The notes: generated by a model from the letters alone, not told the origin. A stretch of DNA of 64,000 nucleotides from a bacterium (GCA_021781955.1 JAJXVV010000002.1:74730-138729), one strand, 5' to 3'. Shown: positions 5,129 to 57,725, counted from the stretch's first letter. Numbers and translations: made by a program.

Positions 5129-5333
5129 ATTGGTCCTCCGCTCCGGTCTCCTTATCGCGACTGCCGCCCACTGTGCCATAGCGTCAAGTTTCTGTAAAAC
5201 GCCAGAGAGGACGGTCCTCTGGGACGAGGCGGACGGCATCCGAGAGCGGATCAGCAAGGTCGTCAAGCTATTCCGTTTCTTCCGCTCCCGTCGTTTCCTG
5301 ACGCGGCGAGAAGTGCCCGAACCGCATGGGCGA

Positions 5334-5579
5334 TCACTCGTTCGCGGCGCAGGTGGAGATGCCGAAGAGACGATAGAGCGGGCAGAGGTGTATGAAGCCG
5401 GTCACCACCATGACGACGGCGACGACGAGCGCTACGATGCCGAGCAATCCCGAGATCCACCCCATGGCGTACGCGATCACGAGCAGGGCCGCGATGATGT
5501 AACGCACGATGCTGTCGATCTTCCCCACGTTCTTTTTATTGTTCATATGCGCCCATTGTACTACCGCCTCGCCGGGCAT
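5334..5579 (-). CDS. DUF2892 (YgaP-like) small membrane protein
   Basis: C-terminal CPLYRLFGISTC motif and a TM helix. Probable start at MNNKKNV (5546). Confidence 0.6.
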   Translation of the reverse strand: MPGEAVVQWAHMNNKKNVGKIDSIVRYIIAALLVIAYAMGWISGLLGIVALVVAVVMVVTGFIHLCPLYRLFGISTCAANE

Positions 5580-5597
5580 GTATAGTAGAATAGGTGC

Positions 5598-6611
5598 ATG
5601 AGCCGCAGAGCGCTCGCCCGTGTCGCGTTCGTAATCGCGGTCGTTGCGGGTACGTTGCTCGTTCTCTCCGGCAAATCTGCCTCAACAGCAAGTCCGCAGT
5701 CGCGACTTGCGACCGATCTCTACCCGCTCTACCCGGGCGCACAGTGGGGAGAGGTCCAGCCGGCGACATCGCCGGATTTCGGCACGGTCGAGCTCGTCGA
5801 GTCATTGCCGTTCGACAACATCACCGATATCGCTTCGGTGACAGCGCCCTACACGCAGTATTACGATCAGAAACTCACACAGGCGGGCTGGACGCGCGAT
5901 CGGTCGCGCGAAGCGGGCGGTCCCGGAGCGGAGCTTGCCGTCTACACCAAGGGTGATCAGTTCATCGTCGTGCTGTTCTCGTCGGTATTCCATATACATT
6001 CGCCTGATGCGCCTGCGCAATGCCCGTGCGATACCACGCTCACCCTCATGAGCGGCACGCAAACCGGTCGAACCATCGCACAAGTACAAGCATCGCGCGC
6101 GTACGCCGATCATGCGGTCGGCTTCTCCATCGCGCTTCCGACGTTGCTCGCCTCGAGCTCGAACGACCTGCTCTTCAGCGTCGACCCTTCGTATGAGTAC
6201 ACGGAAAAGGGTCCGGGCCAATCCATTCCCGGAGTGAAATTCACTATTCCGAAGTCGCTCGCGTCCGGCACGAATCTCGCGCCCGACACGTACCTGAGCG
6301 TTGAGCATTTGCCGAAAGGGGCGGCATGCGACGCGTCCGCGTTCTTGGCGGATCCAGGCGCGACCTCGCACCCGCTCAGGGAGGGCGCGGTGTCGTACTC
6401 GGTCGCTTCTTCGACCGGCGCTGGCGTCGGCAATCGCTACGAGGAGTGGGTTTATGCTCGCACCGGTACGGATCCCTGCATCGCGGTGCGTTACTTCATT
6501 CATTACGCCGCCATCGAGAATTTCCCGCCGGGCGCAGTGCGCGAGTTCGATCATGCGTCCCTTCTCCAGACTTTTGACGCGATACGCCGCACGCTCCGTG
6601 TCGCGCAATAA
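5598..6611 (+). CDS. secreted/anchored hypothetical protein
   Basis: N-terminal TM/signal peptide MSRRALARVAFVIAVVAGTLLVLSG. No recognisable domain. Confidence 0.55.
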   Translation: MSRRALARVAFVIAVVAGTLLVLSGKSASTASPQSRLATDLYPLYPGAQWGEVQPATSPDFGTVELVESLPFDNITDIASVTAPYTQYYDQKLTQAGWTRDRSREAGGPGAELAVYTKGDQFIVVLFSSVFHIHSPDAPAQCPCDTTLTLMSGTQTGRTIAQVQASRAYADHAVGFSIALPTLLASSSNDLLFSVDPSYEYTEKGPGQSIPGVKFTIPKSLASGTNLAPDTYLSVEHLPKGAACDASAFLADPGATSHPLREGAVSYSVASSTGAGVGNRYEEWVYARTGTDPCIAVRYFIHYAAIENFPPGAVREFDHASLLQTFDAIRRTLRVAQ

Positions 6612-6622
6612 CCGATACGCGC

Positions 6623-7036
6623 ATGGACATCCCTCTCTGGAGCATCGTTACCTTGGCGACCGAACTCGTGGTGACCGCGAGCGTTCTCGCTATCATCTGG
6701 CGCGCGTACGCAACGGGCCGGTTCATGACGATGTTTGCCTGGTGGGTGCTTGGCTACGAATTCCTTTTCAATGTGAGCTATATGGCCTCGCGCGAAGCGC
6801 ATGCCGCCACGCGGACGCTCGATCCCTACCTAACGGGGCTCGCGATATTTCACGGCGTGTTCTCGCTCGTGATGTTCTTATCGCTCGTAATATTTTTCTT
6901 CGTTGCGTGGAGGCGCTATGGGCGCGGCGAGAATTTCTTCGCGATACATCCGCGCTTTACCGTATTGTTCGTGACGGCATGGTCCATCTCCATTCTCTCT
7001 GGAGTTCTGCTCTTCGTGCAGCTGTATTTGCTGTAG
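6623..7036 (+). CDS. hypothetical integral membrane protein
   Basis: 137 aa with 4 predicted TM helices. Confidence 0.55.
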   Translation: MDIPLWSIVTLATELVVTASVLAIIWRAYATGRFMTMFAWWVLGYEFLFNVSYMASREAHAATRTLDPYLTGLAIFHGVFSLVMFLSLVIFFFVAWRRYGRGENFFAIHPRFTVLFVTAWSISILSGVLLFVQLYLL

Positions 7037-7230
7037 CGGGGCGCCGGCGTGCGCGCTCGCGCTAGCCAGAAGGTCGATCGCTATGAAATTGGGGCCCCGC
7101 TACCTAGTCCGCCCGAGGGTTTCCGTGCCCTTGCGTGTCCTCATAACCTCTTTTGGGACGCGCGCAAGCGCGCGGCCGATATTCCCGCAGGGGCGCGATG
7201 CTGTGGTACAGTAACTGCATTGCAGAAGGT

Positions 7231-7944
7231 ATGAAATTGCCCCTCGATATATTCGAACCGCACAAAAGTGCGACCGGCGCACGGCTCAATTGGTTGCGCG
7301 CAGCGGTACTGGGCGCCAATGATGGCACTGTCTCGGTCGCGGCGCTCGTCGTCGGGGTCGCGGGCGCGTCGGATTTCGGCTCCCACACTCTCATCGTCGG
7401 CGTCGCGGGGCTTTTGGCCGGCGCGCTCTCGATGGCGGTGGGTGAGTACATTTCGGTCTCGAGCCAACGCGACATCGAGATTTCGCTCCTGGAAAAAGAG
7501 CGCGGTGAGCTCAAGCATGATCCAGAAGGCGAGCTCGAAGAGCTTACCGCTCTTTATGAAGAAAAGGGGCTCACGCGCGGGACGGCAGAGCAAGTGGCGA
7601 AGGAGCTTACCGAACACGACGCTTTCGCGGCGCACGTGGAGGCGGAGCTCCGCATCGACCCCGACGACCTCACGAATCCGTGGCATGCGGCGTTCGCCTC
7701 AGGCGCATCCTTTACCTTGGGCGCGCTTATCCCGCTCATCGCGATCGTCATGCCGCCTGCCGACATCCGCATCCCCGTTACCTTCGCAGCCGTGCTCGTC
7801 GCGCTCGTCATCACCGGTGTCTTGAGCGCGTGGGCAAGCGACACGCGCCCGCTTCCCGTGACGATGCGCGTGGTCTTGGGCGGCGTGTTGGCAATGATCA
7901 TCACGTTCGGCATCGGCCGCCTCTTCGGCGTCGCGAACCTGTAA
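7231..7944 (+). CDS. VIT1/CCC1 family (vacuolar iron transporter-like) membrane protein
   Basis: Motif NWLRAAVLGANDGTVSVAALVVGVAGAS. SD agaagg before ATG 7231. Confidence 0.7.
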   Translation: MKLPLDIFEPHKSATGARLNWLRAAVLGANDGTVSVAALVVGVAGASDFGSHTLIVGVAGLLAGALSMAVGEYISVSSQRDIEISLLEKERGELKHDPEGELEELTALYEEKGLTRGTAEQVAKELTEHDAFAAHVEAELRIDPDDLTNPWHAAFASGASFTLGALIPLIAIVMPPADIRIPVTFAAVLVALVITGVLSAWASDTRPLPVTMRVVLGGVLAMIITFGIGRLFGVANL

Positions 7945-7998
7945 CGACGGGAAATGCCGGCCCTAACCGGCCCGAGAGGGCGATCCTCCGTCGGTGAC

Positions 7999-8035
7999 TT
8001 ATCCACACTTTTCTACAGAGGACCGTCCTCTGGGG
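7999..8035 (+). repeat. DnaA-box-like TTATCCACA followed by the palindromic repeat element
   Basis: ttatccacac-ttttcta-CAGAGGACCGTCCTCTG-ggg, intergenic. Confidence 0.8.
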
Positions 8036-8161
8036 CGACGTTCGTGCCCTTTTCAGGGTACTTGCATAAAAAGCCATTTAGATGCATAAAGATGGCAACT
8101 AGCCATTTTTATCAGCGTTTAGTCAAGTCAATTAATAAAGCTTTAAGCCATATTTTAGCGT

Positions 8162-9919
8162 ATGAACCTCTCAAAATTCACGATCTTCGGGGTCGTTGCG
8201 GCCGCAGTGCTCTTGAGCGCTAACACGGCGTTCGCTCAGGCGAGCTACCTCTACAGCAGCGGCTCGTGCACGAATCTCGCCCAGGATCTCTCGTATGGGC
8301 AGCGCGGGACCGATGTTTCTGCTCTGCAGAGTTTCCTCGTGAGCCAAAATTACCCTGGCGGCGGCTCGTGGATGGTCACCGGCTATTTCGGCCAGGCGAC
8401 CGTGCAGGCGGTCCGCAACTTCCAGCAAGCGCACGGTTTGCCGATGACCGGCGCGGTCGACGCGTCGACGCGTGCGGCCATCAACAGCGCTTCGTGCGGC
8501 ACTTTTCCCGGTCTCGGGGGTACCGGCTACACGTACAATTACGATTACAGCTACCAGTGGCCGTACTCCGGCGCGAGCCCGTACACCAACAATTATAACT
8601 ACGGGTTCAACTACAACTACGGCTACAACAACTACAATCAGTGTGGCACCTATCCCTACTACTACCCGTGCTCCAATTACTCCTCCTACGGCACGGCGCC
8701 GCACATCACGTCGTTCTCGCCGACCATCGCCTCGCCGGGTTCGACGGTGACCGTGTACGGCACCAACTTCGATCTCTACAGCAACACGGTTTACGTGGGC
8801 GGTACGACGCTCTCCGGCATACCGTCGCAGAACGGTACGGCCATAACCTTCACGATGCCCGCGACCATGAGCGGGAGCGTTTCGGTCTCGGTCGGCAACG
8901 CGTATGGCACGAGCAACTCGCTCACGATCCAGATGAGCGGATCCGGTTATCCGTACAATTACAACTACCCGCCGTACAACTACCCGTGCGGCTACAACGG
9001 ATATGCTTGCCCGAATGCGCAAACGCCGGTCGTGACCTACCTCTCGCCGCAGCAAGGCGCGGTGGGCGCCTCGGTCACCGTGTACGGCTACGGCCTCAGC
9101 TCGACCGGTAATTCGGTGCATTTCGGCAATGGCATCATCGCCAACCTGATGTCGGTCGACGGTCGCTCGGTCTCGTTCGTCGTGCCCTCATCGCTCTCCG
9201 GTTACGGCTACCAGCCGATCGGCCTCGGCACGTACCAGGTATCCGTCACCAATAGCGACGGGCTTACGAGCAACGCGCTGCCGTTCACCATCACCTCGAC
9301 CTCGCAAGGCGGCAACGTGAGCATCACCAACGTGAGCGGCCCCTCGACCCTTGGCATCGGGGTGTCGGGCACGTGGAGCATCACGGTGCAGAACCCTTCG
9401 AGTTCGTACCTTTCGACCTCGGTCAATTGGGGCGACAGCGGCTACTACGCGCCGTCGACGCAGCAAGCGAACGTCTACTCCGGCTCCAACACGCTCACGT
9501 TCTCGCACGTCTATAGCGCAGGCGGCACCTACACCATCACCTTCACGGTAAGCAACGGGGCGGGGCAATCCGCGACCGCGACCGCGAGCGTCTCGGTATC
9601 CGGCACAGGCGGCCAGGGCGCGGTCACCATCAACTCCATCTCGCCGACCCAAGGCTCGATCGGTACGCAGGTCGCGATCTACGGCTCCGGCTTCGACGCG
9701 TACAACAATACGATCCATTTCGGCTCCGGCGGCACGATGCACGTACCGAGTCAAAACGGCGTCATCTATTACACAGTGCCGTCATACCTCTCGCCGTGCG
9801 ATGTCTCAAGCGGCGGCATCTGCCCGATGTACGCGCAGCAAGTTACCTCCGGCTCGTACCCGATCTACGTGACCAGTCCCAACGGCACGAGCAACACCCT
9901 CTCGTTCCAGGTGCAGTAA
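8162..9919 (+). CDS. secreted cell-surface protein: PG-binding domain, Y/N-rich linker, IPT/TIG-like repeats
   Basis: Signal peptide. PG_binding_1-like segment GQRGTDVSALQSFLV...VQAVRNFQQAHGLPMTG. Repeated SPTxxSPGSTVTVYGxxF units. Confidence 0.75.
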   Translation: MNLSKFTIFGVVAAAVLLSANTAFAQASYLYSSGSCTNLAQDLSYGQRGTDVSALQSFLVSQNYPGGGSWMVTGYFGQATVQAVRNFQQAHGLPMTGAVDASTRAAINSASCGTFPGLGGTGYTYNYDYSYQWPYSGASPYTNNYNYGFNYNYGYNNYNQCGTYPYYYPCSNYSSYGTAPHITSFSPTIASPGSTVTVYGTNFDLYSNTVYVGGTTLSGIPSQNGTAITFTMPATMSGSVSVSVGNAYGTSNSLTIQMSGSGYPYNYNYPPYNYPCGYNGYACPNAQTPVVTYLSPQQGAVGASVTVYGYGLSSTGNSVHFGNGIIANLMSVDGRSVSFVVPSSLSGYGYQPIGLGTYQVSVTNSDGLTSNALPFTITSTSQGGNVSITNVSGPSTLGIGVSGTWSITVQNPSSSYLSTSVNWGDSGYYAPSTQQANVYSGSNTLTFSHVYSAGGTYTITFTVSNGAGQSATATASVSVSGTGGQGAVTINSISPTQGSIGTQVAIYGSGFDAYNNTIHFGSGGTMHVPSQNGVIYYTVPSYLSPCDVSSGGICPMYAQQVTSGSYPIYVTSPNGTSNTLSFQVQ

Positions 9920-10015
9920 AAATGCCGGACGAAGCGCCCGAGAAGATGCTCGCGGGTTCCTGTCGATAGTGGATAGCGCGGCTCTGCGCATCTCTCGCCG
10001 CGGTACAATGGCGGC

Positions 10016-10218: not shown

Positions 10219-11298
10219 ATGTTGCGCACCCCGTTCTACGATCCGGAGAGGTCGTATGAGGATAACTACGATGCGGGCCCGTTCGGTGCGCTCGCTGGGC
10301 TCGATACGTATCAGATGGACGGCGAACCGCAGGCCGATTTTCTCGGCCAGAGAGTGTACGCGCCGTTCGGCATTCCGGCCGGACCGCTCTTGAACAGTGC
10401 GTATTGTGCCGCCGCCTTCAAGAAGGGTTTTGATATCTGCGTGTACAAAACGGTGCGCAGCGACGCATTCCCGTGCCACCCGTTCCCCAACGTGCTCGCC
10501 ATCCATCCCGAGGGAGACCTCACGCTCGAAGCGCTCAAGCGCCCGCTCGTGACGGATGCCTCGTACACCGAGCCGCTTTCCATAACCAACTCCTTCGGCG
10601 TGCCGTCGAAAACCGCCGCCGCATGGCAAGAAGACGCGAAGAAGGCGGTCGAGGCCGCCGGCAAAGGCCAAGTGCTCGTGTTGAGCTTCATGGGGACGGT
10701 GCGACCCGGCCAGACGGAGCAGGAATTCATCGACGACTACGCGCTCGCGGCGCGAATGGCTGCGGAGACCGGCGCGAAAGTGCTCGAAACCAATCTCTCA
10801 TGCCCAAACATCGGCAATGAGGGTTTGGTGTGCTACAACCTCGACGTTACCGAGAAGGTCGTCAAAGCCATACGCAAGGAGATCGGTTCGACGCCGCTCG
10901 TTCTCAAGGTCGGTTACTACCAGAACGACGCGGATATGGAGCGCCTCGCGGAAGCGGTGAATGAGTACGCGGATTCGGTCGCCGGCATCAATACGCTACA
11001 GGCTGAGATACGCAATGCGGCAGGGGAACAGGCGCTGCCCGGCTCGCCAGCACGTTTGCGCAGCGGCGTGTGTGGCGCGGGCATTCGCTGGGCGGGACTC
11101 GGCTTCGTGGAGCGCATGCACGCGATACGGGAGAGGCGCGGATTCTCATTCTCGATCGAAGGTGTCGGCGGAGTGATGAACGCAGAGGATTACAAAACGT
11201 ATCGCGACCTCGGCGCTGATTCGGTCATGAGTGCGACGGGCGCGATGTGGGACCCATACCTGGCGAGGGAGATAAAGGAGGCGTACCCGCATGCATAG
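10219..11298 (+). CDS. dihydroorotate dehydrogenase family (class 1-like) oxidoreductase
   Basis: ETNLSCPN signature and TIM-barrel flavoprotein pattern. Confidence 0.7.
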   Translation: MLRTPFYDPERSYEDNYDAGPFGALAGLDTYQMDGEPQADFLGQRVYAPFGIPAGPLLNSAYCAAAFKKGFDICVYKTVRSDAFPCHPFPNVLAIHPEGDLTLEALKRPLVTDASYTEPLSITNSFGVPSKTAAAWQEDAKKAVEAAGKGQVLVLSFMGTVRPGQTEQEFIDDYALAARMAAETGAKVLETNLSCPNIGNEGLVCYNLDVTEKVVKAIRKEIGSTPLVLKVGYYQNDADMERLAEAVNEYADSVAGINTLQAEIRNAAGEQALPGSPARLRSGVCGAGIRWAGLGFVERMHAIRERRGFSFSIEGVGGVMNAEDYKTYRDLGADSVMSATGAMWDPYLAREIKEAYPHA

Positions 11299-12313: not shown

Positions 12314-12528
12314 GGTCTTGAAGAGGGAGGTATGGTATTCGTGATCTCCTGTACCTGCCGATTGCACGTGCCAGCATTGAAACCGTCTTTATACGCAACA
12401 CTGCGTCCGCGGGGCTGCAGGTTTCGTGAGCCGTCCTCTTCGCCGATGTTCCATCGACGCCAGTTCTCGGGTTCTTTCTCACGATCATACGGGTTTGTGT
12501 AATACGCGCCGTACATGGCCGCCTCCAT
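12307..12528 (-). CDS. hypothetical small protein (73 aa)
   Basis: Non-repetitive composition (YGAYYTNPYDREKEPENWRRW...). Its stop lies within the terminator. Sits in the long glmS upstream region. Confidence 0.25.
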   Translation of the reverse strand: MEAAMYGAYYTNPYDREKEPENWRRWNIGEEDGSRNLQPRGRSVAYKDGFNAGTCNRQVQEITNTIPPSSRPA

Positions 12529-15548: not shown

Positions 15549-15549
15549 A

Positions 15550-15655
15550 ATGCGTATCATCCCACCAGGCTGGATGGAGCACCTTGTCTTTCTCGGATAG
15601 GTTGCCGGCGGGTCATCGAGCCAGTTCTCTTGCCGCGCTCTTGATACGATATTCA
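15550..15655 (-). ncRNA. SAM-I (S-box) riboswitch in the metK leader
   Basis: Minus-strand read cgUAUCAAGAG...AGAGAaCUGGCuCGAUGAcCC..CGGCAACC...AAGGUGCUccAuCC...GAUGAUACG matches the S-box core. P1 pairs cguauc with gauacg. Confidence 0.7.
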
Positions 15656-17507: not shown

Positions 17508-19711
17508 AGCCCCCGTTTGATTCGCCGCATTGTTTCCACGAGGTAGTTGATCCAGTACTGTTTCGTGAGTGGCTTATCCTGTGCGTGGAGGTAGCTCTCG
17601 GCGAAACCGCCAAAGCCTTTCTTGAAGAGCGATAGCCCTGCCCACGGATGCTCGGGGCGGCCCTCCGGCGAGATGCCCCAAAAGTTGTAGAGCGTGCAGC
17701 CGCGGCGTTTCGCTTCTTGTATCACGCGCCACTGCAAAAGATACGACGCGTTGATGTCGCGGAACGTCGGCACCGAGCCGCTGTGATGGTAGAAGGCCTG
17801 TCCATTGTAGAAGATGATGATCGCTGCGGCGATGGTCCGACCTTCGTAGCTGCCGAAAAAGAACGCCGCATGACCGTCCTTGGCGAAGAGCTCGAACTCG
17901 CGCCTCAGGTGCTCTTTGCGGAACGGCGTGAACTGCTGCCGCTCGACGGTGGCTTGATACACCTGCCAGAATTTCTCGATGTCGCCCGGATCGGTGCTTT
18001 GCGCGATTTCGACGCCTTTTCTCTCCATCTGTTTGATGAGGTAGCGGGTCGTCTTGCGCATATCTTTCAACAGGTCGTCCTCAGACTTGGTGAGGTCGAG
18101 CATCCAGGCAAGTTCGGGATGCATATGGATTGGCGCGTTGCGGAAACCGAGCGAACGGTAGTGCTGGGCGGGCTCCTCCGTCGCGGGAGAGAGGGGGCAG
18201 ATGCGTATGAACGCGCACTTCTCGCGCGCGCCGAGAGCCTCGGCTTTCTCCGCGATGAATTCGAACAATAGCGCCTCGTCGTTACCCGGCGTTATGAGCG
18301 GGCCGTGCGGGCACAATAAAAAAGAACCGCGTCGTGCCGCTATTTTCAGGAAAAGCGCGGCCGCGACGAGTCGCTGCTCGCGGTACACGCCGATGCGGAA
18401 TACGCCCACGCCTTCTTCCGCATGCAGCTGCCCCCACGTCCACGAGTGCAAAAAGCTGTGCGGTGCACGCATAGTGATGAAGGCCTCCCACGCCGCTTCG
18501 CTCGTTACCTCGGCAACGTGATATCCGGCGTTACGCGCCTGCAGCCATTCGCTTGCGAGATCGGCGATGCGGCGCGCCGCTCTCTCGGAGACGTTGCGGT
18601 GCGTTGGCAAGTTGACCATGAGGTCCGCGACGCGTTCGCCGTGCGGGCATTCGCCGCGATAATTCGTATGTGAAATATATTTTTGCGGGGAAATCGGCGC
18701 GTCGTACCAGATGTCGGACACGTACATACCGTTCTTGCGCAGATATTCGATGAGTTGGTCACGATCAAGGGCGAGGAGCGGGAAACGTATAGCAGAGGTC
18801 TTATCGAATTTGAGCGGGAGAGGCGAGCAGACGCCGAAACGTTCCGCGTACATGCGGGCGATGCGCTGACGATGCGCTTGCGTTCGCTCGAGCTGCTGGA
18901 ATTGCCGTGTGATGAGCCCGCAGTACCAGTCCGGCAGAATGCGGACGTCGCTCTTGAAGCCGTCGAACGGGCGCGAGAGAAGATGCGACGAACGCAGGAG
19001 CGCGTGGAACGGCTTGCCTAAGCCGAGAGGATAGAGCGTGCGTATCTTCCACGTGAGGATCGGGTAAAGCCGGTCTTTGAGTTGTTGCGAAATCGGTACG
19101 GGTACCGCGGGTGCGGGCATTCGATCGGCGTACCGTCCGTTGCGGACGATGAGCGCGCCGCCCGAGACCGCATCGATCACCTTGTCCTGGCTGAACGAGA
19201 GTGCTGTGAAGTCGCCGACGGTGCCAGCCTCGCGGCCGTCAGCGTAGCGCGTGCCGATGGCATGGGCGAGGTCTTCGATGAGCGGTATGCCGTGCTCCTC
19301 GCAGAGCTTCTCGATGGGTCCGATGTCGCAAGGAAAGCCCAGCGTGTTCTGCACGACGACCGCGACGATACCAGCGTGCTCCGTAAGCGCTCGCTCGAGC
19401 GACTCCGGCGGGAAGTTGAGCGAGTGATCGCCGATGTCGAGGTAGAGCGGCGCGTGCCCGCTCTCGGCCACCGCCTCGAAGACCGCGTAGCACGTGTAGC
19501 CGTTGACGACGACCTTGCCTTTATGCGGCAGCGCTTCGAGCGCGAGCCGCAATGCATCGCGGCCTTTGTAGGTGAGGACAACGCTTCCACCGTAGCGCTG
19601 GCTCAAGAGTTTCGTGAGCTGGCCGCGCACGCCTTTGCCGCCAGAGGCGACGAGCGTCTGCAGCGCCGTGCGCAGATCGTAGTTGGAACCGAGCGAGTTG
19701 AATACGGTCAT
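17504..19711 (-). CDS. fusion protein: DegT/DnrJ/EryC1-type PLP aminotransferase (N) plus FemAB-family peptidyltransferase (C)
   Basis: N-terminal 380 aa show the sugar-aminotransferase pattern with SFSQDK lysine. C-terminal 350 aa show the FemAB pattern. One uninterrupted 735-aa frame. Confidence 0.8.
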   Translation of the reverse strand: MTVFNSLGSNYDLRTALQTLVASGGKGVRGQLTKLLSQRYGGSVVLTYKGRDALRLALEALPHKGKVVVNGYTCYAVFEAVAESGHAPLYLDIGDHSLNFPPESLERALTEHAGIVAVVVQNTLGFPCDIGPIEKLCEEHGIPLIEDLAHAIGTRYADGREAGTVGDFTALSFSQDKVIDAVSGGALIVRNGRYADRMPAPAVPVPISQQLKDRLYPILTWKIRTLYPLGLGKPFHALLRSSHLLSRPFDGFKSDVRILPDWYCGLITRQFQQLERTQAHRQRIARMYAERFGVCSPLPLKFDKTSAIRFPLLALDRDQLIEYLRKNGMYVSDIWYDAPISPQKYISHTNYRGECPHGERVADLMVNLPTHRNVSERAARRIADLASEWLQARNAGYHVAEVTSEAAWEAFITMRAPHSFLHSWTWGQLHAEEGVGVFRIGVYREQRLVAAALFLKIAARRGSFLLCPHGPLITPGNDEALLFEFIAEKAEALGAREKCAFIRICPLSPATEEPAQHYRSLGFRNAPIHMHPELAWMLDLTKSEDDLLKDMRKTTRYLIKQMERKGVEIAQSTDPGDIEKFWQVYQATVERQQFTPFRKEHLRREFELFAKDGHAAFFFGSYEGRTIAAAIIIFYNGQAFYHHSGSVPTFRDINASYLLQWRVIQEAKRRGCTLYNFWGISPEGRPEHPWAGLSLFKKGFGGFAESYLHAQDKPLTKQYWINYLVETMRRIKRGL

Positions 19712-22456: not shown

Positions 22457-23335
22457 ATGCGCGCACGACGAGTCACGACATCGAATGAGGTGGACCGACG
22501 AACGGCTGGCGCTGTTCGTCTGAAAGAGCGCGCTGTCCGCTTCCGCCGTGCCGTGTGGGCGTACTACCGTATGCACGGTCGGCACGATCTCCTGTGGAGG
22601 AGGACCACAGATCCGTACCGCATCCTCGTTTCCGAAATGATGCTGCAGCAAACGCAAGTGCCGCGCGTGATACCGAAATACCGGTCGTTCATCAAAAGAT
22701 TCCCGACCGTCCGGCGCTTGGCGCAAGCCTCGCTCGCCGATGTTCTAAAAGAGTGGAGCGGATTAGGATACAACCGGCGTGGGAAGTTCCTGCATGACGC
22801 AGCGAAGGAGGTCGTCGGACGATACGGCGGGCGCGTCCCGCAGGACGCGCCCGCTCTCCGCGCGCTATCGGGGGTCGGCGAGTATACCGCTTCTGCCGTT
22901 CGCGCTTTCGCATTCAACAAGCGGGTCGCGATGCTTGAGACCAACATCCGTACCGCTCTCATTCATCATTTTCATACCACAGAGGACGGTCCTCTGGGGA
23001 AAGTTGGGGACAAGGGCTTGACGGAATTGATGGCGAAGATCGTCGAGGTCGAGAAACGACCGAGGGAATTCTACTGGGCGCTCATGGATTACGGCGCGCA
23101 TCTGAAAGCGAGCGGCGTACGGAACAATATTCGCAGCAAGCACTACGCGAAGCAATCGAGGTTCGAAGGCTCGCTCCGCCAAGTTCGCGGGGAGATCCTC
23201 CGCCAGCTCTCCAACGGAGGACCGTCCTCTGCAATATGCAGAGGACGGTCCTCTGCGCGGATGCGGGAGGCGCTCAGCGGGTTGGAGCGGGACGGTCTTA
23301 TCAAAAAGGAGAAAGGGAAATGGCACATCGCCTAA
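22457..23335 (+). CDS. MutY-like HhH-GPD adenine glycosylase homolog lacking the FeS Cys cluster
   Basis: MutY-like start WAYYRMHGRHDLLWRR and HhH LRALSGVGEYTASAV. No C-x6-C-x2-C-x5-C. Contains three in-frame copies of the palindromic repeat. Confidence 0.7.
   Translation: MRARRVTTSNEVDRRTAGAVRLKERAVRFRRAVWAYYRMHGRHDLLWRRTTDPYRILVSEMMLQQTQVPRVIPKYRSFIKRFPTVRRLAQASLADVLKEWSGLGYNRRGKFLHDAAKEVVGRYGGRVPQDAPALRALSGVGEYTASAVRAFAFNKRVAMLETNIRTALIHHFHTTEDGPLGKVGDKGLTELMAKIVEVEKRPREFYWALMDYGAHLKASGVRNNIRSKHYAKQSRFEGSLRQVRGEILRQLSNGGPSSAICRGRSSARMREALSGLERDGLIKKEKGKWHIA
22980..22999. repeat. palindromic repeat copy inside the MutY-like CDS
   Basis: CAGAGGACGGTCCTCTG-ggg, translated in-frame as TEDGPLG. 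Confidence 0.85.
23215..23255. repeat. two inverted copies of the palindromic repeat inside the MutY-like CDS
   Basis: cGGAGGACCGTCCTCTG-caatatg-CAGAGGACGGTCCTCTG, translated in-frame as NGGPSSAICRGRSSA. Confidence 0.85.
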
Positions 23336-39124: not shown

Positions 39125-39757
39125 ATGAATATGAACGCAAAAAGGGGTCTTATCACCTTATCCATAGCTCTGTTCACGGCGATGCCGGTACTCGCGTTCG
39201 CTCAAGTGGATAACGAAGGCGCTGAAGGTAACTGCAATGACGAGATGTCGGAGTCGATGGGGTGCGGGAATTCGAGCTCAGGTTCCTACGTCGCGCCGTC
39301 CGCCTATTCCTACGCATCGCCTTCGACCTCCTATGCGCCGTCGAGCTACCACTCGGCTTCAGCGTATCCTTCTACCTCGTACACGCCAACGTATCAGACC
39401 TACCGGCCGTCGTATCAGACGTATCAGCCGACCTCATACTCGAGTTACGGAACACCCGCGTCATATTCGTCTTATCCGTACACGACCGGTAGCTACCAAA
39501 TCCAAGGCCAAACTCATGGCCAGTACGGGATACCGACGTCGTACCAGCCGTCGTACTACGGAACATCGATGAATGCAGCTCCGATAGTGACACCGCAGTA
39601 CTATCTTACGCAGCCGCCCAGCACGCGGTCGGTTCCGACCGGTACCTATTCGGGCGGACAACAGTTGTGCCAGTGGTCCGACTATCCGACCCCCACATCT
39701 TGCGGCAGCGATCCACAGCAATGGCTCTACGACCCGTACTCGGGCCAGTGGTACTAG
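39125..39757 (+). CDS. secreted S/Y/T/P-rich low-complexity protein
   Basis: Signal peptide. SYxxPS/TSY repeats. Confidence 0.55.
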   Translation: MNMNAKRGLITLSIALFTAMPVLAFAQVDNEGAEGNCNDEMSESMGCGNSSSGSYVAPSAYSYASPSTSYAPSSYHSASAYPSTSYTPTYQTYRPSYQTYQPTSYSSYGTPASYSSYPYTTGSYQIQGQTHGQYGIPTSYQPSYYGTSMNAAPIVTPQYYLTQPPSTRSVPTGTYSGGQQLCQWSDYPTPTSCGSDPQQWLYDPYSGQWY

Positions 39758-43886: not shown

Positions 43887-46250
43887 ATGCCGCAGGGACT
43901 CACGACCGGCTCGGCAGAGGCGTACATCGTTGCGCACGGCTATAACGAGATAGTTGAACGGAAACAGTCGCTCCTCACGAAGCTGGCGAAGCGTGCCGTC
44001 TCGCCGATCAGCCTCATGCTCCTCTTGGCGGCCGACCTTTCGTATTGGAGCGGCAAAGACTTCGACGCAGGGTTCATCCTCGCGCTGCTCGTCGTCAACA
44101 TCGGCGTCACTATTTTGCAGGAGCGCAAGGCAGATACCGCGATCGAGAAACTCAACGAACATCTCGCGACGACGGTGAAGACCATGCGCGATGGCGCGTG
44201 GAAAAAGCTCCCGTCGCGCCTGCTGGTGCCGCACGATGTCATCGAGCTGCGCTCGGGCGACGTCGTGCCTGCCGACGCGCTCGTGCGCGAAGCCAATCGC
44301 GCTTCGGCAAACGAGGCCGCGCTCACCGGCGAGTCGCTGCCCAAGGAAAAAGGGCAGGGAGACACGCTCTACTCCGGTTCGTTCGTCGCGTCCGGTATTA
44401 TCACGGCCGAGGTGTCGGCGACCGGCAGCGGCACGTACTTCGGTTCGACCGTCGCCAAGGTCGACGCGCGCGAGAAGCGCAGCTCGCTCGAGCGCGAGAT
44501 GCTCCGCATTTCGCAGTTCCTTTCGGTGCTCGCGATGCTCGCCGTGCTGCTCCTTTCCGTTATCCTGTACGCCGCGCACGCGCCTTTCGTCGAGATAGTG
44601 CGGCTCGATCTCTCGCTCGTTATTGCGGGCATTCCCATCGACTTGCCGACCGTGATGACGCTCATTATCGCCTTCGGCGTCGTTGCGCTCGCGCGCAAGG
44701 GCGCGATCGTCCGGCGCCTCGCCTCGCTCGAAGAGCTCGCCAATACCGACTACCTGCTTACCGACAAGACCGGCACGCTCACCGAGAATAAAATAGCCAT
44801 CCAGAACGTCATTGTGTACGCGCAGGCTGCGGAAAACGATGTCATGCGCCTCGCGGGGATCGTCGCGCAACATGAGGCGGATTTCGCGCTCGACAAGGCG
44901 ATACTCGAGCGTGCCGGTGCGATACCGCAGTCCCTTTCGTTCATACCGTCGGACTCTACGCGGAAACGCGCGACCGCGAGCTACGAAGAGAGCGGCCGCA
45001 TCGTCACGCTCTCGCTCGGCGCACCGCAAGTGATCGCGGGTTTATGCGCGCTTTCGCCCGAGGCGAAAGCGCGCTTTGACGTTGACGTGTCCAACCTCGC
45101 CGAGGGTGGCTATCGCGCGCTCGCGCTCGCGCGAGCGGGCGGCGAGCGTGAAGAGGGAATGGAACTCGTCGCAGTTTTCGCACTTTCCGACACGCTGCGC
45201 GCCGATGCGGGCGACGTCGTGCGGTTCTTGGAGGAGAATGGCGTTGGTGTCACGATGAACACCGGCGACAACCGCGCCATCGCACGCGAGATCGCGGAGA
45301 AGCTCAACGTTCGCGGTTCGCGCATCATTACGTCGCAAGATAAGCCAGCGCAAGGCTGGAGCGGGCTCGCCAAGGATGATTTTCGCGACGCGCGTTCTTT
45401 TGCCGAGATATTGCCTGAGGACAAGTACGAACTGGTACGTTCGGCGGAACGTTTTTACACGGTCGCCGTGAACGGCGACGGCGTCAACGACCTGCCAGCC
45501 GTGAAGGCGGCAGATGTCGGTTTCGCGGTCAAGGAGGCCGTTGATGCGCTGAAAGGCGCCGCTGATATCGTGCTCCTCACGGACGGTATCGCGGTCATGC
45601 GCGACGCCTTCATCGAAGGTCGCAAGATATTCATGCGTCTTTACACGTACTCGGTGTATCGCATTTCGGAGAGCTTCCGGCTCATTGTGACGATCGCGTT
45701 CCTCGGCTTTTTCTCGGGCACGTACCCGCTCTCGCCGCTACAGCTCATCCTCATCGCGATATTGAACGACCTGCCCATCATCTCGCTCGCAGGCAATCGT
45801 GTGAAAGTGGCGAACCGTCCGGCGCGGCTGAACGTGATCCGGCAGTTCGGGTCGAGCACGCTCTTCGGTCTTGTCGGTGTCGTCAACAGCTTGCTCCTCT
45901 ACTTCCTGGCGCTCAACTTCTTGCGCCTGCCGCTTTCGGTGGTGCAGACGCTCTTTTTCCTCAAGCTCACCATTTCCGGGCACATGCTCATCTATGTTGC
46001 ACACACCGAGGAGCGCTGGTGGCGCTATCTGCCGAGTTCGGCCGTCATCATCGCGACCTCGGCGACACAGGCCATCGCGACTCTCTTCGCGATAACGGGA
46101 TGGCTCATGCCCGCGCCGATATCCTGGCCGCTCGCGGTCTTCGTGTGGGCGTGGGCGTTCTTCTTCATGCAGATCACCGAAGCCACCAAGCTTGCGCGCG
46201 AGCGCCTCTCCGCACCGTCGACTCCGACCACTCAACCCGCGACTGTCTAG
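43887..46250 (+). CDS. P-type cation-transporting ATPase (P2/P3-like)
   Basis: DKTGTLT, TGES and VNGDGVNDLPAVKAADVGFAV motifs. Confidence 0.9.
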   Translation: MPQGLTTGSAEAYIVAHGYNEIVERKQSLLTKLAKRAVSPISLMLLLAADLSYWSGKDFDAGFILALLVVNIGVTILQERKADTAIEKLNEHLATTVKTMRDGAWKKLPSRLLVPHDVIELRSGDVVPADALVREANRASANEAALTGESLPKEKGQGDTLYSGSFVASGIITAEVSATGSGTYFGSTVAKVDAREKRSSLEREMLRISQFLSVLAMLAVLLLSVILYAAHAPFVEIVRLDLSLVIAGIPIDLPTVMTLIIAFGVVALARKGAIVRRLASLEELANTDYLLTDKTGTLTENKIAIQNVIVYAQAAENDVMRLAGIVAQHEADFALDKAILERAGAIPQSLSFIPSDSTRKRATASYEESGRIVTLSLGAPQVIAGLCALSPEAKARFDVDVSNLAEGGYRALALARAGGEREEGMELVAVFALSDTLRADAGDVVRFLEENGVGVTMNTGDNRAIAREIAEKLNVRGSRIITSQDKPAQGWSGLAKDDFRDARSFAEILPEDKYELVRSAERFYTVAVNGDGVNDLPAVKAADVGFAVKEAVDALKGAADIVLLTDGIAVMRDAFIEGRKIFMRLYTYSVYRISESFRLIVTIAFLGFFSGTYPLSPLQLILIAILNDLPIISLAGNRVKVANRPARLNVIRQFGSSTLFGLVGVVNSLLLYFLALNFLRLPLSVVQTLFFLKLTISGHMLIYVAHTEERWWRYLPSSAVIIATSATQAIATLFAITGWLMPAPISWPLAVFVWAWAFFFMQITEATKLARERLSAPSTPTTQPATV

Positions 46251-46253: not shown

Positions 46254-46358
46254 TTATCCACAGCGAGGTACAGAGGACCGTCCTCTGGGGGAAGAGTCAG
46301 TACGTTTCGTCGAAGGTGAATTATCCACAGATTTGTACAGAGGACCGTCCTCTGGGGA
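46254..46358 (+). repeat. tandem pair of units: DnaA-box-like TTATCCACA plus palindromic repeat
   Basis: Unit 1 at 46254-46291 and unit 2 at 46321-46358: ttatccacag-N7-taCAGAGGACCGTCCTCTGgggg. Confidence 0.85.
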
Positions 46359-46429: not shown

Positions 46430-46897
46430 ATGACGCTGATAGGCATCGCTCCGATCATCGCCGCAGGTATCGCGTCGGTCGTTCTCGCGTGGTTGTGGTA
46501 CGCGCCGTTCGTGTTCGGCGGCATCTGGATGCGCGCGGCCAATGTCACGCCGGAAATGGCGGAAAAGGGGAAGAAGCGCATGCACCTCAACTCGCTCGTC
46601 GCGCTCGTGGGCAGCATGCTCATCGCGTGGGTGATGGGATACGTCGGGACGCTCCTCAACGTGTACGACTGGTTCGGCGCGATCGAACTCGGCTTTTGGT
46701 GCTGGCTCGGCTTCACTGCCGCCCCGATGCTCGGCCTGGTGCTGTGGGAGCAGCGGCCGTTGCGGTACTACTTCATCGTCGCTGGGTACTGGCTCGTTGC
46801 GTTCATCGTGATGGCGCTCGTTTTGGTCGTTGGCACGCAGCTCATGTCCGGAGGCTTCTCGCAGTACGAGACCGGCGTGGTCACGACGTCGTCTTAG
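46430..46897 (+). CDS. DUF1761-like membrane protein
   Basis: Four TM helices with WYAPFVFGGIWM. Confidence 0.55.
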   Translation: MTLIGIAPIIAAGIASVVLAWLWYAPFVFGGIWMRAANVTPEMAEKGKKRMHLNSLVALVGSMLIAWVMGYVGTLLNVYDWFGAIELGFWCWLGFTAAPMLGLVLWEQRPLRYYFIVAGYWLVAFIVMALVLVVGTQLMSGGFSQYETGVVTTSS

Positions 46898-47401: not shown

Positions 47402-47738
47402 CGCCTGCGTTAGGCAGTCGCTCCGACCTGGCGTCGGAGAGGAAAGTCCGGACACGCACTTCGACGCTCGTCGGAGTAGCAGGGTAGCGGGTAACGCCCG
47501 CCTGGGTGATCCAAGGGATGCGAACAGAGACGCCCGAGCCGAGAGGCAAGGGACTCCGCGAGGAGTAGCTCATGCGGGAACGCATGAGGTGCAACGGCAA
47601 AATTCCTACCCGCGTGCAAGGCCGTGTCCAGCTGTCATTCTCAATTGAAATGACCGCTGGAAGTGCCGCTCGAGGTGAACGGCGACGTTCATCCCAGATA
47701 AATGATTGCCCTCGACAGAATCCGGCTTACAAATGCAG
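47402..47738 (+). ncRNA. rnpB: RNase P RNA, bacterial type A
   Basis: GAGGAAAGUCCGGAC, AGGGUAGCGGGUAACGCCCGCCUGGG and ACAGAAUCCGGCUUA. -10 cataat at 47392-47397. Confidence 0.8.
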
Positions 47739-47740
47739 AT

Positions 47741-47770
47741 GCAAAACCCGCCTCTCGGCGGGCTTTGTTT
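47741..47770 (+). terminator. rho-independent terminator after rnpB
   Basis: cccgcc-tctc-ggcggg followed by ctttgttttt. Confidence 0.6.
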
Positions 47771-53493: not shown

Positions 53494-53495
53494 AA

Positions 53496-53834: not shown

Positions 53835-53854
53835 TTTGGTATAGTAATCCCGCT

Positions 53855-54838: not shown

Positions 54839-54847
54839 ACGCCGTGG

Positions 54848-56110
54848 CTAGCCGAGGGAGGAGAATACGTGGTCGGCGATCTGGTCGACGGGGAGCGTGC
54901 GCTCGTGGCCCGTCTCGAGGTTCTTGATCGTGTAGCGGCCCGATTCGCGCTCTTTGCTGCCGACGGCGATGATGAAGGGGATGCCCATTGCGTCGGCCTG
55001 GCGGATCTGGTCGCCGATGCGCTTGTCGGAGAAGTTGACCGCTACCGTGACGTCGTCGCGGCGCAGGCTCTGTGCGAGGTGTGTCGCATGGGCAGTCGCT
55101 TCTTGCTCGACGATGCAGATCATGAGTTCGGTCGCGGGCGCGTAGCGCGGCAAAAGATTGTGTGCCTCGAGGAAATCGCGCGCCGTGACGTCGCCCATCC
55201 CGAAGCCGACCGCCGGGATAGACGCGCCCCCGAAGAGCGAGAGGAGGTTGTCGTAGCGACCGCCGCCGAAAAGCGAACGACGGTTGCGCGGGTCAGTGTC
55301 GTACACCTCGAAGACCATGCCGGTGTAGTAGTCGAAGCCGCGCGTCACCGACGTGTCGACGACCATGTTGCCCACGCCCATGCTCTCGAGCGCGGAGCGG
55401 AGGTCCTCGAGGTATTTCGTGGAGGTGAGGCGCTCGAGTTCTTCAACGAGCTTCACCGCCTTTTCCTCGTGCGCGATGAGATCGGTCAGACGTTTCTCGA
55501 AGTCGTCGATCTTCGCGCGACGGTCGAGGAGGCGGGTGACGTCGGCGGCGTACTCCTTGGCGATACCGACGGAGCGGTAGATGGATTCGAGTATCCGGCG
55601 ATCGGAAACGTGTATCTCGAAGTCGCGTTCTTCGGCGCCCAGGCTGCGCATGATGCCGTGCGCGACCGCGATCACCTCGGCGTCGGCCTCGATGCCCTCG
55701 GCACCCACGAGGTCCACGTTGAGCTGCCAGTGCTCGCGCAAGCGGCCGCGTTGCGGACGTTCGTAGCGGAAGACATTGGGTATCGAGTACCAGCGTACCG
55801 GCAAGGGCAATTCGCGCTGACGTGCCGCGATCATGCGGGCGAGCGTGGGCGTCATTTCTGGGCGCAGCGTCACCTCGCGGCCCCCGCGGTCGAGGAAGGA
55901 GTAGGTCTGCTCGTTGACGATCTCTTCGGAGGTCTTCGATCGGTAGAGTTCTGCCGGCTCAAGCACCGATGCGGTGTACTCCTCGTAACCGAAGAGCTCG
56001 CACACGCGCTCCATGTGCTCGAAGAGGTAGCGCTGGAAGAACTGATCCTCGGGATAGAAATCCCTGACCCCCTTGTAGCTCTCGGTCGGAAGCGCATCGC
56101 CTTTCGCCAT
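54848..56110 (-). CDS. hisS: histidine--tRNA ligase
   Basis: Class II motifs, GVRDFYPED and the HisS anticodon-binding domain. Start trimmed to MAKGDALP (ATG ending 56110). Confidence 0.9.
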   Translation of the reverse strand: MAKGDALPTESYKGVRDFYPEDQFFQRYLFEHMERVCELFGYEEYTASVLEPAELYRSKTSEEIVNEQTYSFLDRGGREVTLRPEMTPTLARMIAARQRELPLPVRWYSIPNVFRYERPQRGRLREHWQLNVDLVGAEGIEADAEVIAVAHGIMRSLGAEERDFEIHVSDRRILESIYRSVGIAKEYAADVTRLLDRRAKIDDFEKRLTDLIAHEEKAVKLVEELERLTSTKYLEDLRSALESMGVGNMVVDTSVTRGFDYYTGMVFEVYDTDPRNRRSLFGGGRYDNLLSLFGGASIPAVGFGMGDVTARDFLEAHNLLPRYAPATELMICIVEQEATAHATHLAQSLRRDDVTVAVNFSDKRIGDQIRQADAMGIPFIIAVGSKERESGRYTIKNLETGHERTLPVDQIADHVFSSLG

Positions 56111-56132
56111 CTCGGTATTATACTCATCCTTT

Positions 56133-56531
56133 ATGCGAACGGTAGGCGCACAAGTCGTCGTGAAAGAGGCGGGCCCGGAGGTGGGAAAAGGCCTTTTCGC
56201 CGCTGCGCCCATCGAGAAGGGCGCCTTCATCGCGGAATACACCGGTACGAAGATCACGACCAAGGTCGCCGATACGCTGAAGACGCGCTACCTCTTCGAA
56301 CTCGATGAGGATTGGACCATCGACGGCGAGGACGAGAGCAACGTGGCGCGCTGGATCAATCACTGCTGCGAACCAAACGCGGAGGCGGAGACCCATGATG
56401 GGCACATATTCATCTTCGCCACGCGGCGCATCGCGGCAGGGAAGGAGATAACCATCGACTACGGCGACGAGTACTATGACGAGTTTATTCGGCCGGTCGG
56501 GTGCAAGTGCAAAGCGAAACGGCACCGCTAA
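56133..56531 (+). CDS. SET-domain protein
   Basis: NHCCEPN ... GKEITIDYG, followed by a post-SET Cys cluster CKCKAKRH. Confidence 0.8.
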   Translation: MRTVGAQVVVKEAGPEVGKGLFAAAPIEKGAFIAEYTGTKITTKVADTLKTRYLFELDEDWTIDGEDESNVARWINHCCEPNAEAETHDGHIFIFATRRIAAGKEITIDYGDEYYDEFIRPVGCKCKAKRHR

Positions 56532-56576
56532 GTCGAAGTTGTCGCCCACAAATCGTCTTGGTATACTTCAGACACT

Positions 56577-57254
56577 ATGCAGCGCAAGCAAGAAGTGTGG
56601 GTTGTCGCTATCTTCGCCGTTGTCGTGGTCGTTGCGGCGATAGGCGCGGCGTTCCTCTCGGGCAACGCGGGCAGCACGTCCAACTTCAAGGCGACGACCG
56701 TGCCGGCCGTCACCTCGGCCGACCACATACGCGGTAACGCGAGCAGTACCGTGTCGCTCATCGAGTACGGCGATTTTGAGTGTCCCGCCTGCGGCGCGTA
56801 TCAGCCGCTCATTCAGCAGCTCTTGCAGCAGTACGGCGACAGGGTCGAGTTCGCGTTCCGCAACTTCCCGCTCTACCAGATACACCCGGACGCGATGATC
56901 AGCGCGCAGGCGGCAGAGGCGGCCGGCTTGCAGGGCAAGTACTGGGAGATGCACGATCTCCTGTACCAAAAGCAGAACGAGTGGACGGCCGCCTCGCCTG
57001 ATACGGTCGTGAGCAAGTATTTCGACGGCTACGCGCAGTCGCTCGGGCTCAACGTCGCACGATTCGACGCTGACATCCAATCAGCCGCAGTGAAACAGAA
57101 GGTTCAGGATGACCTCGGGACCGGCAACGCCGCGCAGGTCGATCATACACCGACGTTCTTTATCAACCTCACGCAGATACCGAATCCCACAAGCTATGCC
57201 GCCTTCACCCAAGCCATCGACGCTGCCCTCGCCTCGTCGACCGCTGTTAAATAA
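56577..57254 (+). CDS. DsbA-like thioredoxin-fold oxidoreductase
   Basis: N-terminal TM; EYGDFECPACGAY CxxC. Confidence 0.8.
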   Translation: MQRKQEVWVVAIFAVVVVVAAIGAAFLSGNAGSTSNFKATTVPAVTSADHIRGNASSTVSLIEYGDFECPACGAYQPLIQQLLQQYGDRVEFAFRNFPLYQIHPDAMISAQAAEAAGLQGKYWEMHDLLYQKQNEWTAASPDTVVSKYFDGYAQSLGLNVARFDADIQSAAVKQKVQDDLGTGNAAQVDHTPTFFINLTQIPNPTSYAAFTQAIDAALASSTAVK

Positions 57255-57675
57255 GCTCCTGCTCGCGATAGCCGGCTTCTCGTTCGTCGGTTTCGCCGAC
57301 TCCGCCTACCTCACGGCCGATCACTACCTCGCACTGCCGCTGCCGTGTTCGATACTGCACGGATGCGACATCGTGCTGCGGTCCGCCTACTCGATGATAG
57401 GTCCCATTCCGGTCGCGATGACGGGTGTGGCGTTCTATCTCGTCGTGCTGTTCTTCGTGCTGTACCTCTACACGGCCGATACGCTCGAAAAGCGCCTCGT
57501 CTACGCGCTCGCCGGTCTCGGCACAATCGGGTTCGCGATGTCTGCCATCTTTGAGTCAATCCAAATCTACCTCATTCACGCGCTTTGCCAGTATTGCGCC
57601 CTTTCCGCGCTCAGCTCGGCTCTCATTTTCATCTCCGCGCTCTGGCTCTCCCGCGCAGCACGGAAGGGCGCATAA
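57196..57675 (+). CDS. vitamin K epoxide reductase (VKOR) family protein
   Basis: LPCSILHGCDIVLRS active-site Cys pair, TM helices, C-terminal CQYC. Frame is +1 relative to the DsbA-like ORF; overlaps it by about 59 nt. Confidence 0.7.
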   Translation: MPPSPKPSTLPSPRRPLLNKLLLAIAGFSFVGFADSAYLTADHYLALPLPCSILHGCDIVLRSAYSMIGPIPVAMTGVAFYLVVLFFVLYLYTADTLEKRLVYALAGLGTIGFAMSAIFESIQIYLIHALCQYCALSALSSALIFISALWLSRAARKGA

Positions 57676-57705
57676 CGCTCGCAACCGCTTATCCCCACTT
57701 TCACC

Positions 57706-57725
57706 CAGAGGACCGTCCTCTGTAT
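57706..57725. repeat. palindromic repeat copy preceded by a degenerate DnaA-box-like motif
   Basis: cttatccccac-tttcac-cCAGAGGACCGTCCTCTG. Confidence 0.8.

Follow-up and report, generated by a model that had tools for sequence, protein, structure and literature searches.

A dispersed 17-nucleotide palindrome in a Kaiserbacteria-like genome is probably a REP-type hairpin repeat shared across Patescibacteria together with a RAYT-like HUH/Y1 enzyme

Results

The repeat and its setting

The stretch of DNA analysed here (GCA_021781955.1 JAJXVV010000002.1:74730-138729, 64 kb, called the window throughout) carries eight copies of a perfect palindrome of 17 nucleotides, CAGAGGAC(C/G)GTCCTCTG (the 17-mer), which for brevity we refer to as REP copies, after the repetitive extragenic palindromes (REPs) of other bacteria. 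Homologues of a glycosylase encoded in the window are named Candidatus Kaiserbacteria or Paceibacterota, and the neighbourhood is syntenic with Kaiserbacteria contigs. Exact protein matches put the window on a metagenome contig of 160 kb and supplied its gene calls. Judged from its sequence, the organism is a Kaiserbacteria-like member of the Patescibacteria (Candidate Phyla Radiation, CPR) with a GC content of 60%. Five of the eight copies are intergenic although non-coding DNA makes up only about 8% of the window by its gene calls, showing that their placement is non-random. They lie between the 3′ end of a YgaP-like gene and the start of a shikimate kinase gene, between VIT1 and a TIG/PG-binding gene, between a P-type ATPase gene and a DUF1761 gene (two copies, the second ending 76 nt upstream of the DUF1761 gene), and between VKOR and a called open reading frame (ORF) of 62 aa, 29 nt before which the copy ends (Table 1). 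Each of the five is found 21-113 nt downstream of a stop codon, a correlation with gene ends that an earlier reading of this DNA, made from the sequence only, had proposed to examine. That reading had placed most copies between genes; this holds for these five but not for the copies at 22980, 23215 and 23239, which lie inside a gene of 292 aa for a MutY-like HhH-GPD glycosylase. No functional coherence was found among the genes neighbouring the copies.

Six copies are exact and two near-exact, and they occupy six places. Shuffles preserving dinucleotides predict 0.00 exact 17-mers and 0.07 with at most three mismatches, which bears out the sequence-only reading that so many exact copies cannot be due to chance. 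The same reading rightly saw both orientations of the element (the central base of the + strand is C in 5/8 copies and G in 3/8), and the GGG(G) that it described after most copies is found as a GG(G) tail after 5/8. The copies are unchanged across contigs ERZ27236874, ERZ27236866, GCA_027352215.1 and Logan SRR13178628; because independently assembled samples and an NCBI metagenome-assembled genome (MAG) hold the same copies, the assembly artefact feared earlier is excluded. The core is fully conserved while the immediate flanks differ between copies, as does the 8-nt spacer that precedes some of them; nothing beyond the 17-mer (plus a 9-mer box described below) is shared between copies. In a scan of the window the 17-mer was the sole recurring hairpin with a perfect stem of at least 8 bp, and its 8-mer half-site is absent outside the palindromes. 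A half-site formerly noted near 12430 proved to be a 7-mer (12433-12439) at background level, two extra 7-mers being found against about eight expected. The short palindrome GGACCGTCC at 31445, in coding sequence, is unrelated to the 17-mer and was set aside.

Every copy folds into a hairpin with a 7-bp stem and a 3-nt loop (about -6 kcal/mol as DNA for a single hairpin). A hairpin is therefore feasible, where the sequence-only reading had thought a 1-nt loop unlikely and protein binding more plausible. The inverted doublet at 23215/23239 folds as a whole into a single extended hairpin (about 19 pairs, -28 kcal/mol, z = -8.5).

Table 1. Copies of the 17-mer, accompanying boxes and neighbouring genes (window positions, unless a locus is named)
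Feature	Position	Strand	Description
REP copy	5204..5223	-	variant GAGAGGACGGTCCTCTG on +; one mismatch (17-mer from 5205, GAGAGG...), or a 2-nt bulge reading CCAGAG[AG]GAC; no box
REP copy	8016..8032	+	exact, central C, then GGG
REP copy	22980..22996	-	exact, central G on +; inside the MutY-like HhH-GPD gene; encodes TEDGPLG, first hypervariable loop
REP copy	23215..23231	+	one mismatch (CGGAGG...), central C; left arm of inverted doublet in the HhH-GPD gene
REP copy	23239..23255	-	exact, central G on +; right arm of inverted doublet; doublet encodes GGPSSAICRGRSSA, second hypervariable loop
REP copy	46271..46287	+	exact, central C, then GGGG; starts 21 nt past the P-type ATPase stop
REP copy	46338..46354	+	exact, central C, then GGG; direct tandem with 46271, 67-nt period
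REP copy	57706..57722	+	exact, central C; starts 31 nt past the VKOR stop
DnaA-box 9-mer	7999..8007	+	perfect TTATCCACA, 8 nt upstream of REP 8016
DnaA-box 9-mer	46254..46262	+	perfect TTATCCACA, 8 nt upstream of REP 46271
DnaA-box 9-mer	46321..46329	+	perfect TTATCCACA, 8 nt upstream of REP 46338
Box variant	57689..57697	+	TTATCCCCA, one mismatch, 8 nt upstream of REP 57706
Degenerate box	23005..23013	-	TTGTCCCCA, two mismatches, 8 nt from REP 22980, central-C orientation
DnaA-box 9-mers	L130 5633, 10723, 14833, 17671; L136 7203, 10699, 18111	gene strand, all	perfect TTATCCACA
Shikimate kinase gene	4523-5128	-	
YgaP-like gene	5334-5579	-	
VIT1	7198-7944	+	
TIG/PG-binding gene	8162-9919	+	
MutY-like HhH-GPD glycosylase gene	22457-23335		292 aa; holds three copies
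P-type ATPase gene	43887-46250		
DUF1761 gene	46430-46897		
VKOR	57196-57675		
Called ORF	57751-57939		62 aa

The repeat brackets a RAYT-like Y1 gene in other Patescibacteria

ORFs within 1.5 kb of the motif were clustered over 120 loci. A single ORF family recurred, at 8 independent loci, and neither a regulator nor a ParB did so. The recurring gene encodes a Y1_Tnp protein of 208-248 aa, and the 17-mer brackets it in at least six other Patescibacteria loci. Exact copies were found on both sides of the gene in L025, L030, L093, L100 and L109; in L022 it is bracketed by close variants with one exact copy at the 3′ end, and in L106 an exact copy lies on the 5′ side and the contig ends inside the gene. 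The two sides form an inverted pair, with opposite central bases, in four of the five loci where both flanks were read.

All seven enzymes score above the cut-off of Pfam Y1_Tnp (IS200-like HUH transposase), and for all seven the only NCBIfam match is REP_Tyr_transpos, the 'REP-associated tyrosine transposase' (RAYT). HUH and Tyr motifs are present, and NHxHLL, YIHxNP and a downstream SS are invariant. An AlphaFold model (predicted local distance difference test, pLDDT, 88.7) has as its best PDB match 4ER8, the E. coli TnpA_REP bound to a REP hairpin (E = 2e-6), followed by the IS608 and ISDra2 transposases. The family comprises 1,364 clusters at 50% identity (E <= 1e-30) and is annotated only as 'transposase', one homologue carrying the source name 'REP element-mobilizing transposase RayT'.

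Further members are bracketed by palindromes of their own: P0139 by TACCCCATAGG-N5-CCTATGGGGTA, with four copies within 2 kb, P0220 by AGAAAGGACGGTCCTTTCT-type units, and P0225 by ACCAAGGAGAGTCCTTGGT. P0220 and P0225 are 56% identical and lie in the same neighbourhood (RecA-FtsK ... gene ... L10-L12) with different palindromes. The shared neighbourhood points to vertical inheritance rather than hopping.

REP units or doublets also occur inside RAYT genes, in a variable loop, where they encode QRTVL/EDRPL (L030, 4122-4157) or KGRSF (L130, 10169). In P0312, the most GC-rich family member found, ADGFH replaces the HUH motif (PNHFH), and this protein is perhaps a relic without activity. In L109, L127, L130 and L136 the promoter region of the RAYT gene itself is overlapped by the 5′ REP. 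From the spacing of the palindrome to -35/-10 hexamers at other CPR loci we had considered an activator site, and dropped this reading because one such 'promoter', in L025, is the antisense of RAYT coding sequence.

Distribution of the 17-mer in genomes and metagenomes

With one genome per species, 596 Gb of sequence yielded 52 exact matches, where random sequence would give about 69. Five Patescibacteria-like MAGs hold 18 of the 52 (8 in Vogelbacteria, 5 and 2 in two Saccharibacteria, 1 in Nomurabacteria and 2 in an unclassified 'bacterium'), and all other genomes are near chance. Singleton matches in Firmicutes, Atribacterota and others, with outer stems that apparently covary, were discounted because the total does not exceed chance and matches of this kind are biased by terminator hairpins. 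A metagenome scan added many further low-GC CPR-like contigs, in which the core is lengthened by lineage-specific palindromic flanks (GTA..TAC, ACCA..TGGT, ATG..CAT, TACA..TGTA). At 31 low-GC CPR loci, 19 of 37 sites lie outside ORFs of at least 100 aa, compared with 12.5% of the bases. Viral contigs gave one match to the 17-mer and none to the box-hairpin composite, written as TTATCCNCA-N8-17-mer.

An Oscillospiraceae MAG (L028) encodes a homologue of the same Y1 family at 1391-1915 (E = 4e-39) and carries two copies of the 17-mer core at 3430 and 3697, about 1.5 kb from it and with a longer flank in common. The Y1 family is thus not strictly confined to Patescibacteria.

A DnaA-box motif at a fixed offset from the hairpin

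Four of the eight copies are preceded on the central-C strand by TTATCC(A/C)CA, always at a distance of exactly 8 nt from the hairpin, a feature that the sequence-only reading did not mention. The perfect 9-mer, TTATCCACA, is the universal high-affinity DnaA box and matches the consensus TTATNCACA. The window holds three perfect boxes, where its composition predicts about 0.2 (an estimate), and each of them stands 8 nt 5′ of a REP. The variant at the fourth copy departs from the DnaA consensus at position 7, a conserved position, and the degenerate box beside copy 22980 is weak evidence because it lies inside coding sequence. Box and hairpin stay conserved while the sequence of the spacer varies. 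Comparable arrangements were found in L116 (REP, 3 nt, box, 7 nt, REP) and in the Nomurabacteria locus L130 (REP, 12 nt, box, 7 nt, REP). In addition, the syntenic loci L130 and L136 have a perfect box 4-5 nt 3′ of the 3′ hairpin of the RAYT gene, and the 5′ REPs of the L136 gene are preceded by TTATCCCCA at distances of 9 and 15 nt. The box-plus-hairpin arrangement is real and recurs in three lineages.

Most REP copies of other Patescibacteria have no box, which shows that the box is not needed for recognition by the enzyme. A RAYT with a DnaA_C domain was not found: the domain is absent from the seven RAYTs examined. The proximity of box and hairpin is significant (p = 5e-7) but confounded, both features being intergenic. 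No dnaA gene is among the annotated genes of the window, and the boxes at the REPs are single, not clustered. From the sequence, the box could be a candidate DnaA-binding site, or a cleavage or target motif of the RAYT as at IS608 hairpins.

Two 20-kb Nomurabacteria-like loci together hold seven perfect boxes (about 0.2 per locus estimated), several of them 5-8 nt upstream of -35-like hexamers, and TTATCCACA may be a general promoter-upstream element in such genomes. In the window, an inverted pair of boxes with one mismatch each, TTATCCATA (39158-39166, +) and TTATCCACT (39205-39213, -), lies 40 nt apart where the GC content is lowest. Downstream of the box and REP at 8016 come about 100 nt of AT-rich DNA (8060-8160), and the window's cumulative GC skew reaches its lowest value at 8-10 kb (8000-10000). 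Since there is neither a dnaA gene nor a box cluster, we do not call this region an origin.

Copies inside the glycosylase gene

The peptides encoded by the three intragenic copies, TEDGPLG and GGPSSAICRGRSSA, coincide with two hypervariable, indel-rich loops in an alignment of 21 homologues. The full peptides occur in none of the homologues listed, and no net length gain of the glycosylase relative to its homologues is visible; these copies may have arisen by insertion or in place. In the Kaiserbacteria relative L135 a different palindromic repeat, of 58 nt, sits in the first loop, at the place of window copy 22980; this repeat is found at 10491-10548 and 18882-18939, the second copy being 95% identical. 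Palindromes seem to settle repeatedly in the first glycosylase loop.

Other features of the window

Parts of a diversity-generating retroelement were noticed at the left end: a bAvd-like ORF at 1874-2305 (-; Pfam 37.8 bits, cut-off 40) and, just beyond the window (L125 15371-16764, some 2.6-4 kb to the left of its first base), a second bAvd gene together with an RVT_1 reverse transcriptase. An S-adenosylmethionine (SAM) riboswitch lies upstream of metK (15551-15650, -). A class A RNase P RNA at 47402-47745 (+) has a low family score (129 bits, gathering 100) and is overlapped by mechanically called ORFs.

Discussion

A probable REP-type repeat with a RAYT-like enzyme

We consider it probable that the 17-mer is a REP-type hairpin repeat, one of a family found across Patescibacteria together with a RAYT-like HUH/Y1 enzyme. 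The main support is that the same 17-mer brackets RAYT-like Y1 genes in other Patescibacteria, at six loci on both sides and at one on a single side. Of the two proposals in the sequence-only reading, this favours REP units or units like miniature inverted-repeat transposable elements (MITEs) over the operator of a dimeric DNA-binding protein. REP hairpins have a stem of 7-20 bp and a loop of 2-5 nt (PMC6006769), values within which the fold of the window copies falls. The copies are numerous, dispersed and mostly extragenic, and the enzymes of the relatives have the HUH and Tyr motifs and a fold like that of TnpA_REP. As expected of such systems, the enzyme appears to be inherited vertically and the repeat to be specific to the lineage (P0220/P0225, P0139).

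Several observations weigh against this interpretation. The tag GTAG/GTGG, which defines classical REPs (PMC6006769), is not present 0-2 nt 5′ of the stem, nor is CGTC; the triplets that precede the palindrome on its 5′ side read CTA, GTA, GTA, ACC, CCA, CAA, ATG and CCA, with (G/C)TAC as the best agreement (3/8), and in other lineages the flanks prolong the palindrome (GTA..TAC, ACCA..TGGT) where the tag would be. The NCBIfam score is under the curated cut-off (43 vs 80 bits), and the sequence similarity to 4ER8 is weak (E = 0.14). One and the same 17-mer accompanies RAYTs merely 33-50% identical, while a RAYT of 62% identity has an unrelated palindrome, indicating that co-divergence of REP and enzyme is not simple. 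Searches by tblastn and six-frame hidden Markov models (HMMs) found no RAYT gene in the window plus about 8 kb on each side (80 kb), and 390 homologues screened for GC-rich composition included no candidate for the cognate RAYT of the window genome. No presence/absence polymorphism of the copies was seen among near-identical strains; the sequence-only reading had proposed to check whether copy number varies between strains. Finally, a conserved core beside differing flanks is as compatible with selection for a binding site as with recent mobility.

A protein probably binds the motif, most likely a RAYT that acts on single-stranded hairpins. By homology with TnpA_REP and with the IS608 TnpA (see also PMC6006769), a RAYT encoded elsewhere in the genome would bind the hairpin where the DNA is single-stranded, as at the replication fork, and would cut and rejoin the hairpin DNA through its catalytic tyrosine. 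Such cutting and rejoining would spread the units and homogenise them.

Alternative interpretations

A further proposal, which overlaps with the REP interpretation and does not replace it, joins REP hairpin and DnaA box into one functional module of fixed spacing and strand. DnaA bound beside the hairpin would then help to melt the duplex and extrude the hairpin for the RAYT, or the cell would have co-opted the units as putative DnaA-binding modules that buffer (titrate) DnaA or control promoters. Every perfect box of the window, as well as the variants with one and two mismatches, keeps the same distance and strand; the geometry in L116 and L130 is alike, boxes also attend the RAYT hairpins of L130 and L136, and the spacer is free to vary between two conserved parts. 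The motif itself is the universal box, and a Y1 subclass with a DnaA_C-like domain has been reported, the flanking repeats of which are unlike DnaA boxes (Quentin et al. 2018, PMC6006769). The many box-free copies of other Patescibacteria, the seven enzymes without a DnaA_C domain, the confounded proximity test and the off-consensus position of TTATCCCCA argue in the other direction, and with the sequence as its basis we regard the module as rather unlikely.

The copies might instead act primarily in RNA, as transcription terminators or as 3′ hairpins that stabilise mRNA. All five intergenic copies follow a stop codon closely, and enterobacterial REPs are known to act in this way (PMC3733652). 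An intrinsic terminator consists of a GC-rich hairpin and a T-tract, but no T-tract follows any copy and a terminator scan gave no match at the copies; the single hairpin is weak, three copies are intragenic, and Rfam at gathering level recognised no known RNA at the copies. Moreover, such a role leaves unexplained both the identical sequence in lineages of phylum-level divergence and the bracketing of RAYT genes. A primary role in RNA is therefore improbable, whereas a secondary one is possible.

KorB operators are perfect dyads with an odd centre. The 17-mer has the same symmetry, and this together with the fully conserved core beside variable flanks would suit an operator or a centromere-like site, held by selection for a symmetric duplex-binding dimer such as a transcription factor or a ParB/KorB-like protein. 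Several copies are upstream of genes, and the five intergenic ones point their central C towards the downstream gene. For sites of this kind one expects conservation at orthologous promoters of a coherent gene set, near a regulator; what we found is a functionally incoherent set of neighbours, with no copies of the 17-mer in the syntenic relatives L134 and L135, unrelated palindromes at orthologous RAYT loci, and a Y1 transposase as the sole recurring neighbour in place of any regulator or ParB. Three copies lie within coding sequence, and inverted doublets occur. These data make an operator, the second proposal of the sequence-only reading, very improbable. A DNA uptake sequence, a short word over-represented by itself, was rejected because the 8-mer arm occurs solely inside palindromes. 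An IS200/IS605 element or palindrome-associated transposable element (PATE) would form a block of at least 100 bp with distinct left and right ends, where here flanks and spacer differ.

Significance

REP/RAYT systems are known mainly from Proteobacteria and a few other phyla, and a full-text literature search found no description of them in the CPR; a search by the motif sequence returned only an unrelated cell-biology paper on a mitotic kinase. With the REP interpretation, the DNA sequence itself shows which hairpin belongs to the enzyme, which gives a defined substrate-enzyme pair for the biochemistry of organisms that are hard to culture. The repeat offers a marker for strain typing and accounts for odd in-frame peptides (EDGPL, RGRSS) in CPR proteins. 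If functional, the DnaA box at its fixed offset would tie REP biology to the initiation of replication, and under the module proposal the replication initiator would be physically and directly connected with a domesticated transposase system that acts on single strands.

Comparison with known systems

The closest parallel is the REP and bacterial interspersed mosaic element (BIME) system of E. coli with its TnpA_REP (RayT, 4ER8). Both consist of short, dispersed hairpin palindromes, mostly extragenic and often in inverted doublets, with a Y1 HUH gene bracketed by the repeats, and 4ER8 is the closest match to the fold predicted for the Patescibacteria enzyme. The E. coli REP is an imperfect palindrome of 35-40 nt with a 5′ GTAG tag, whereas the window unit is a perfect 17-mer with a stem of 7-8 bp and no such tag, and the Patescibacteria enzyme is 60-80 residues longer and below the NCBIfam cut-off. 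The linkers of E. coli BIMEs carry IHF sites; the window units have instead the DnaA-box 9-mer at a fixed offset.

In the Pseudomonas system of RAYTs and REP doublets forming hairpins (REPINs), Bertels and Rainey reportedly described in 2011 inverted REP doublets as the units, vertical inheritance of the RAYT and a repeat of its own for each lineage. The inverted doublets, the vertical RAYT and the lineage-own repeat have counterparts here (synteny of L130 and L136), but single units and direct tandems outnumber doublets, 8 copies are found in 80 kb, and one core is common to RAYTs of 33-50% identity.

With the IS200/IS605 elements (IS608, ISDra2) and PATEs the present system shares a Y1 HUH enzyme specific for hairpins of one DNA strand. 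In IS200/IS605 the left hairpin has on its 5′ side, and the right hairpin on its 3′ side, a short conserved motif of the same strand at a set distance, which resembles the boxes of L136. Unlike these elements, the gene here does not occur in multiple copies and keeps its synteny between genomes, the repeats stand alone as units of at most 40 nt, there are no distinct left and right ends, and no conservation is seen in the spacer that separates box and hairpin.

DNA-repair genes with REPs and REP dimers inside them are documented (Di Nocera et al. 2013, PMC3733652). These and the Rickettsia palindromic elements treated there resemble the copies in the MutY-like glycosylase gene, being units and dimers in frame in permissive loops, notably of DNA-repair genes; as the glycosylase shows no net gain in length, simple insertion is not demonstrated in the present case. 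A connection between Y1 transposases and DnaA-type recognition has a precedent in Y1 subclass 2.1, the terminal inverted repeat-associated tyrosine transposases (TIRYTs) with a Bac_DnaA_C-like domain (PMC6006769). There the domain is in the protein and the repeats are unlike DnaA boxes, whereas here the box is in the DNA and the seven enzymes are without the domain.

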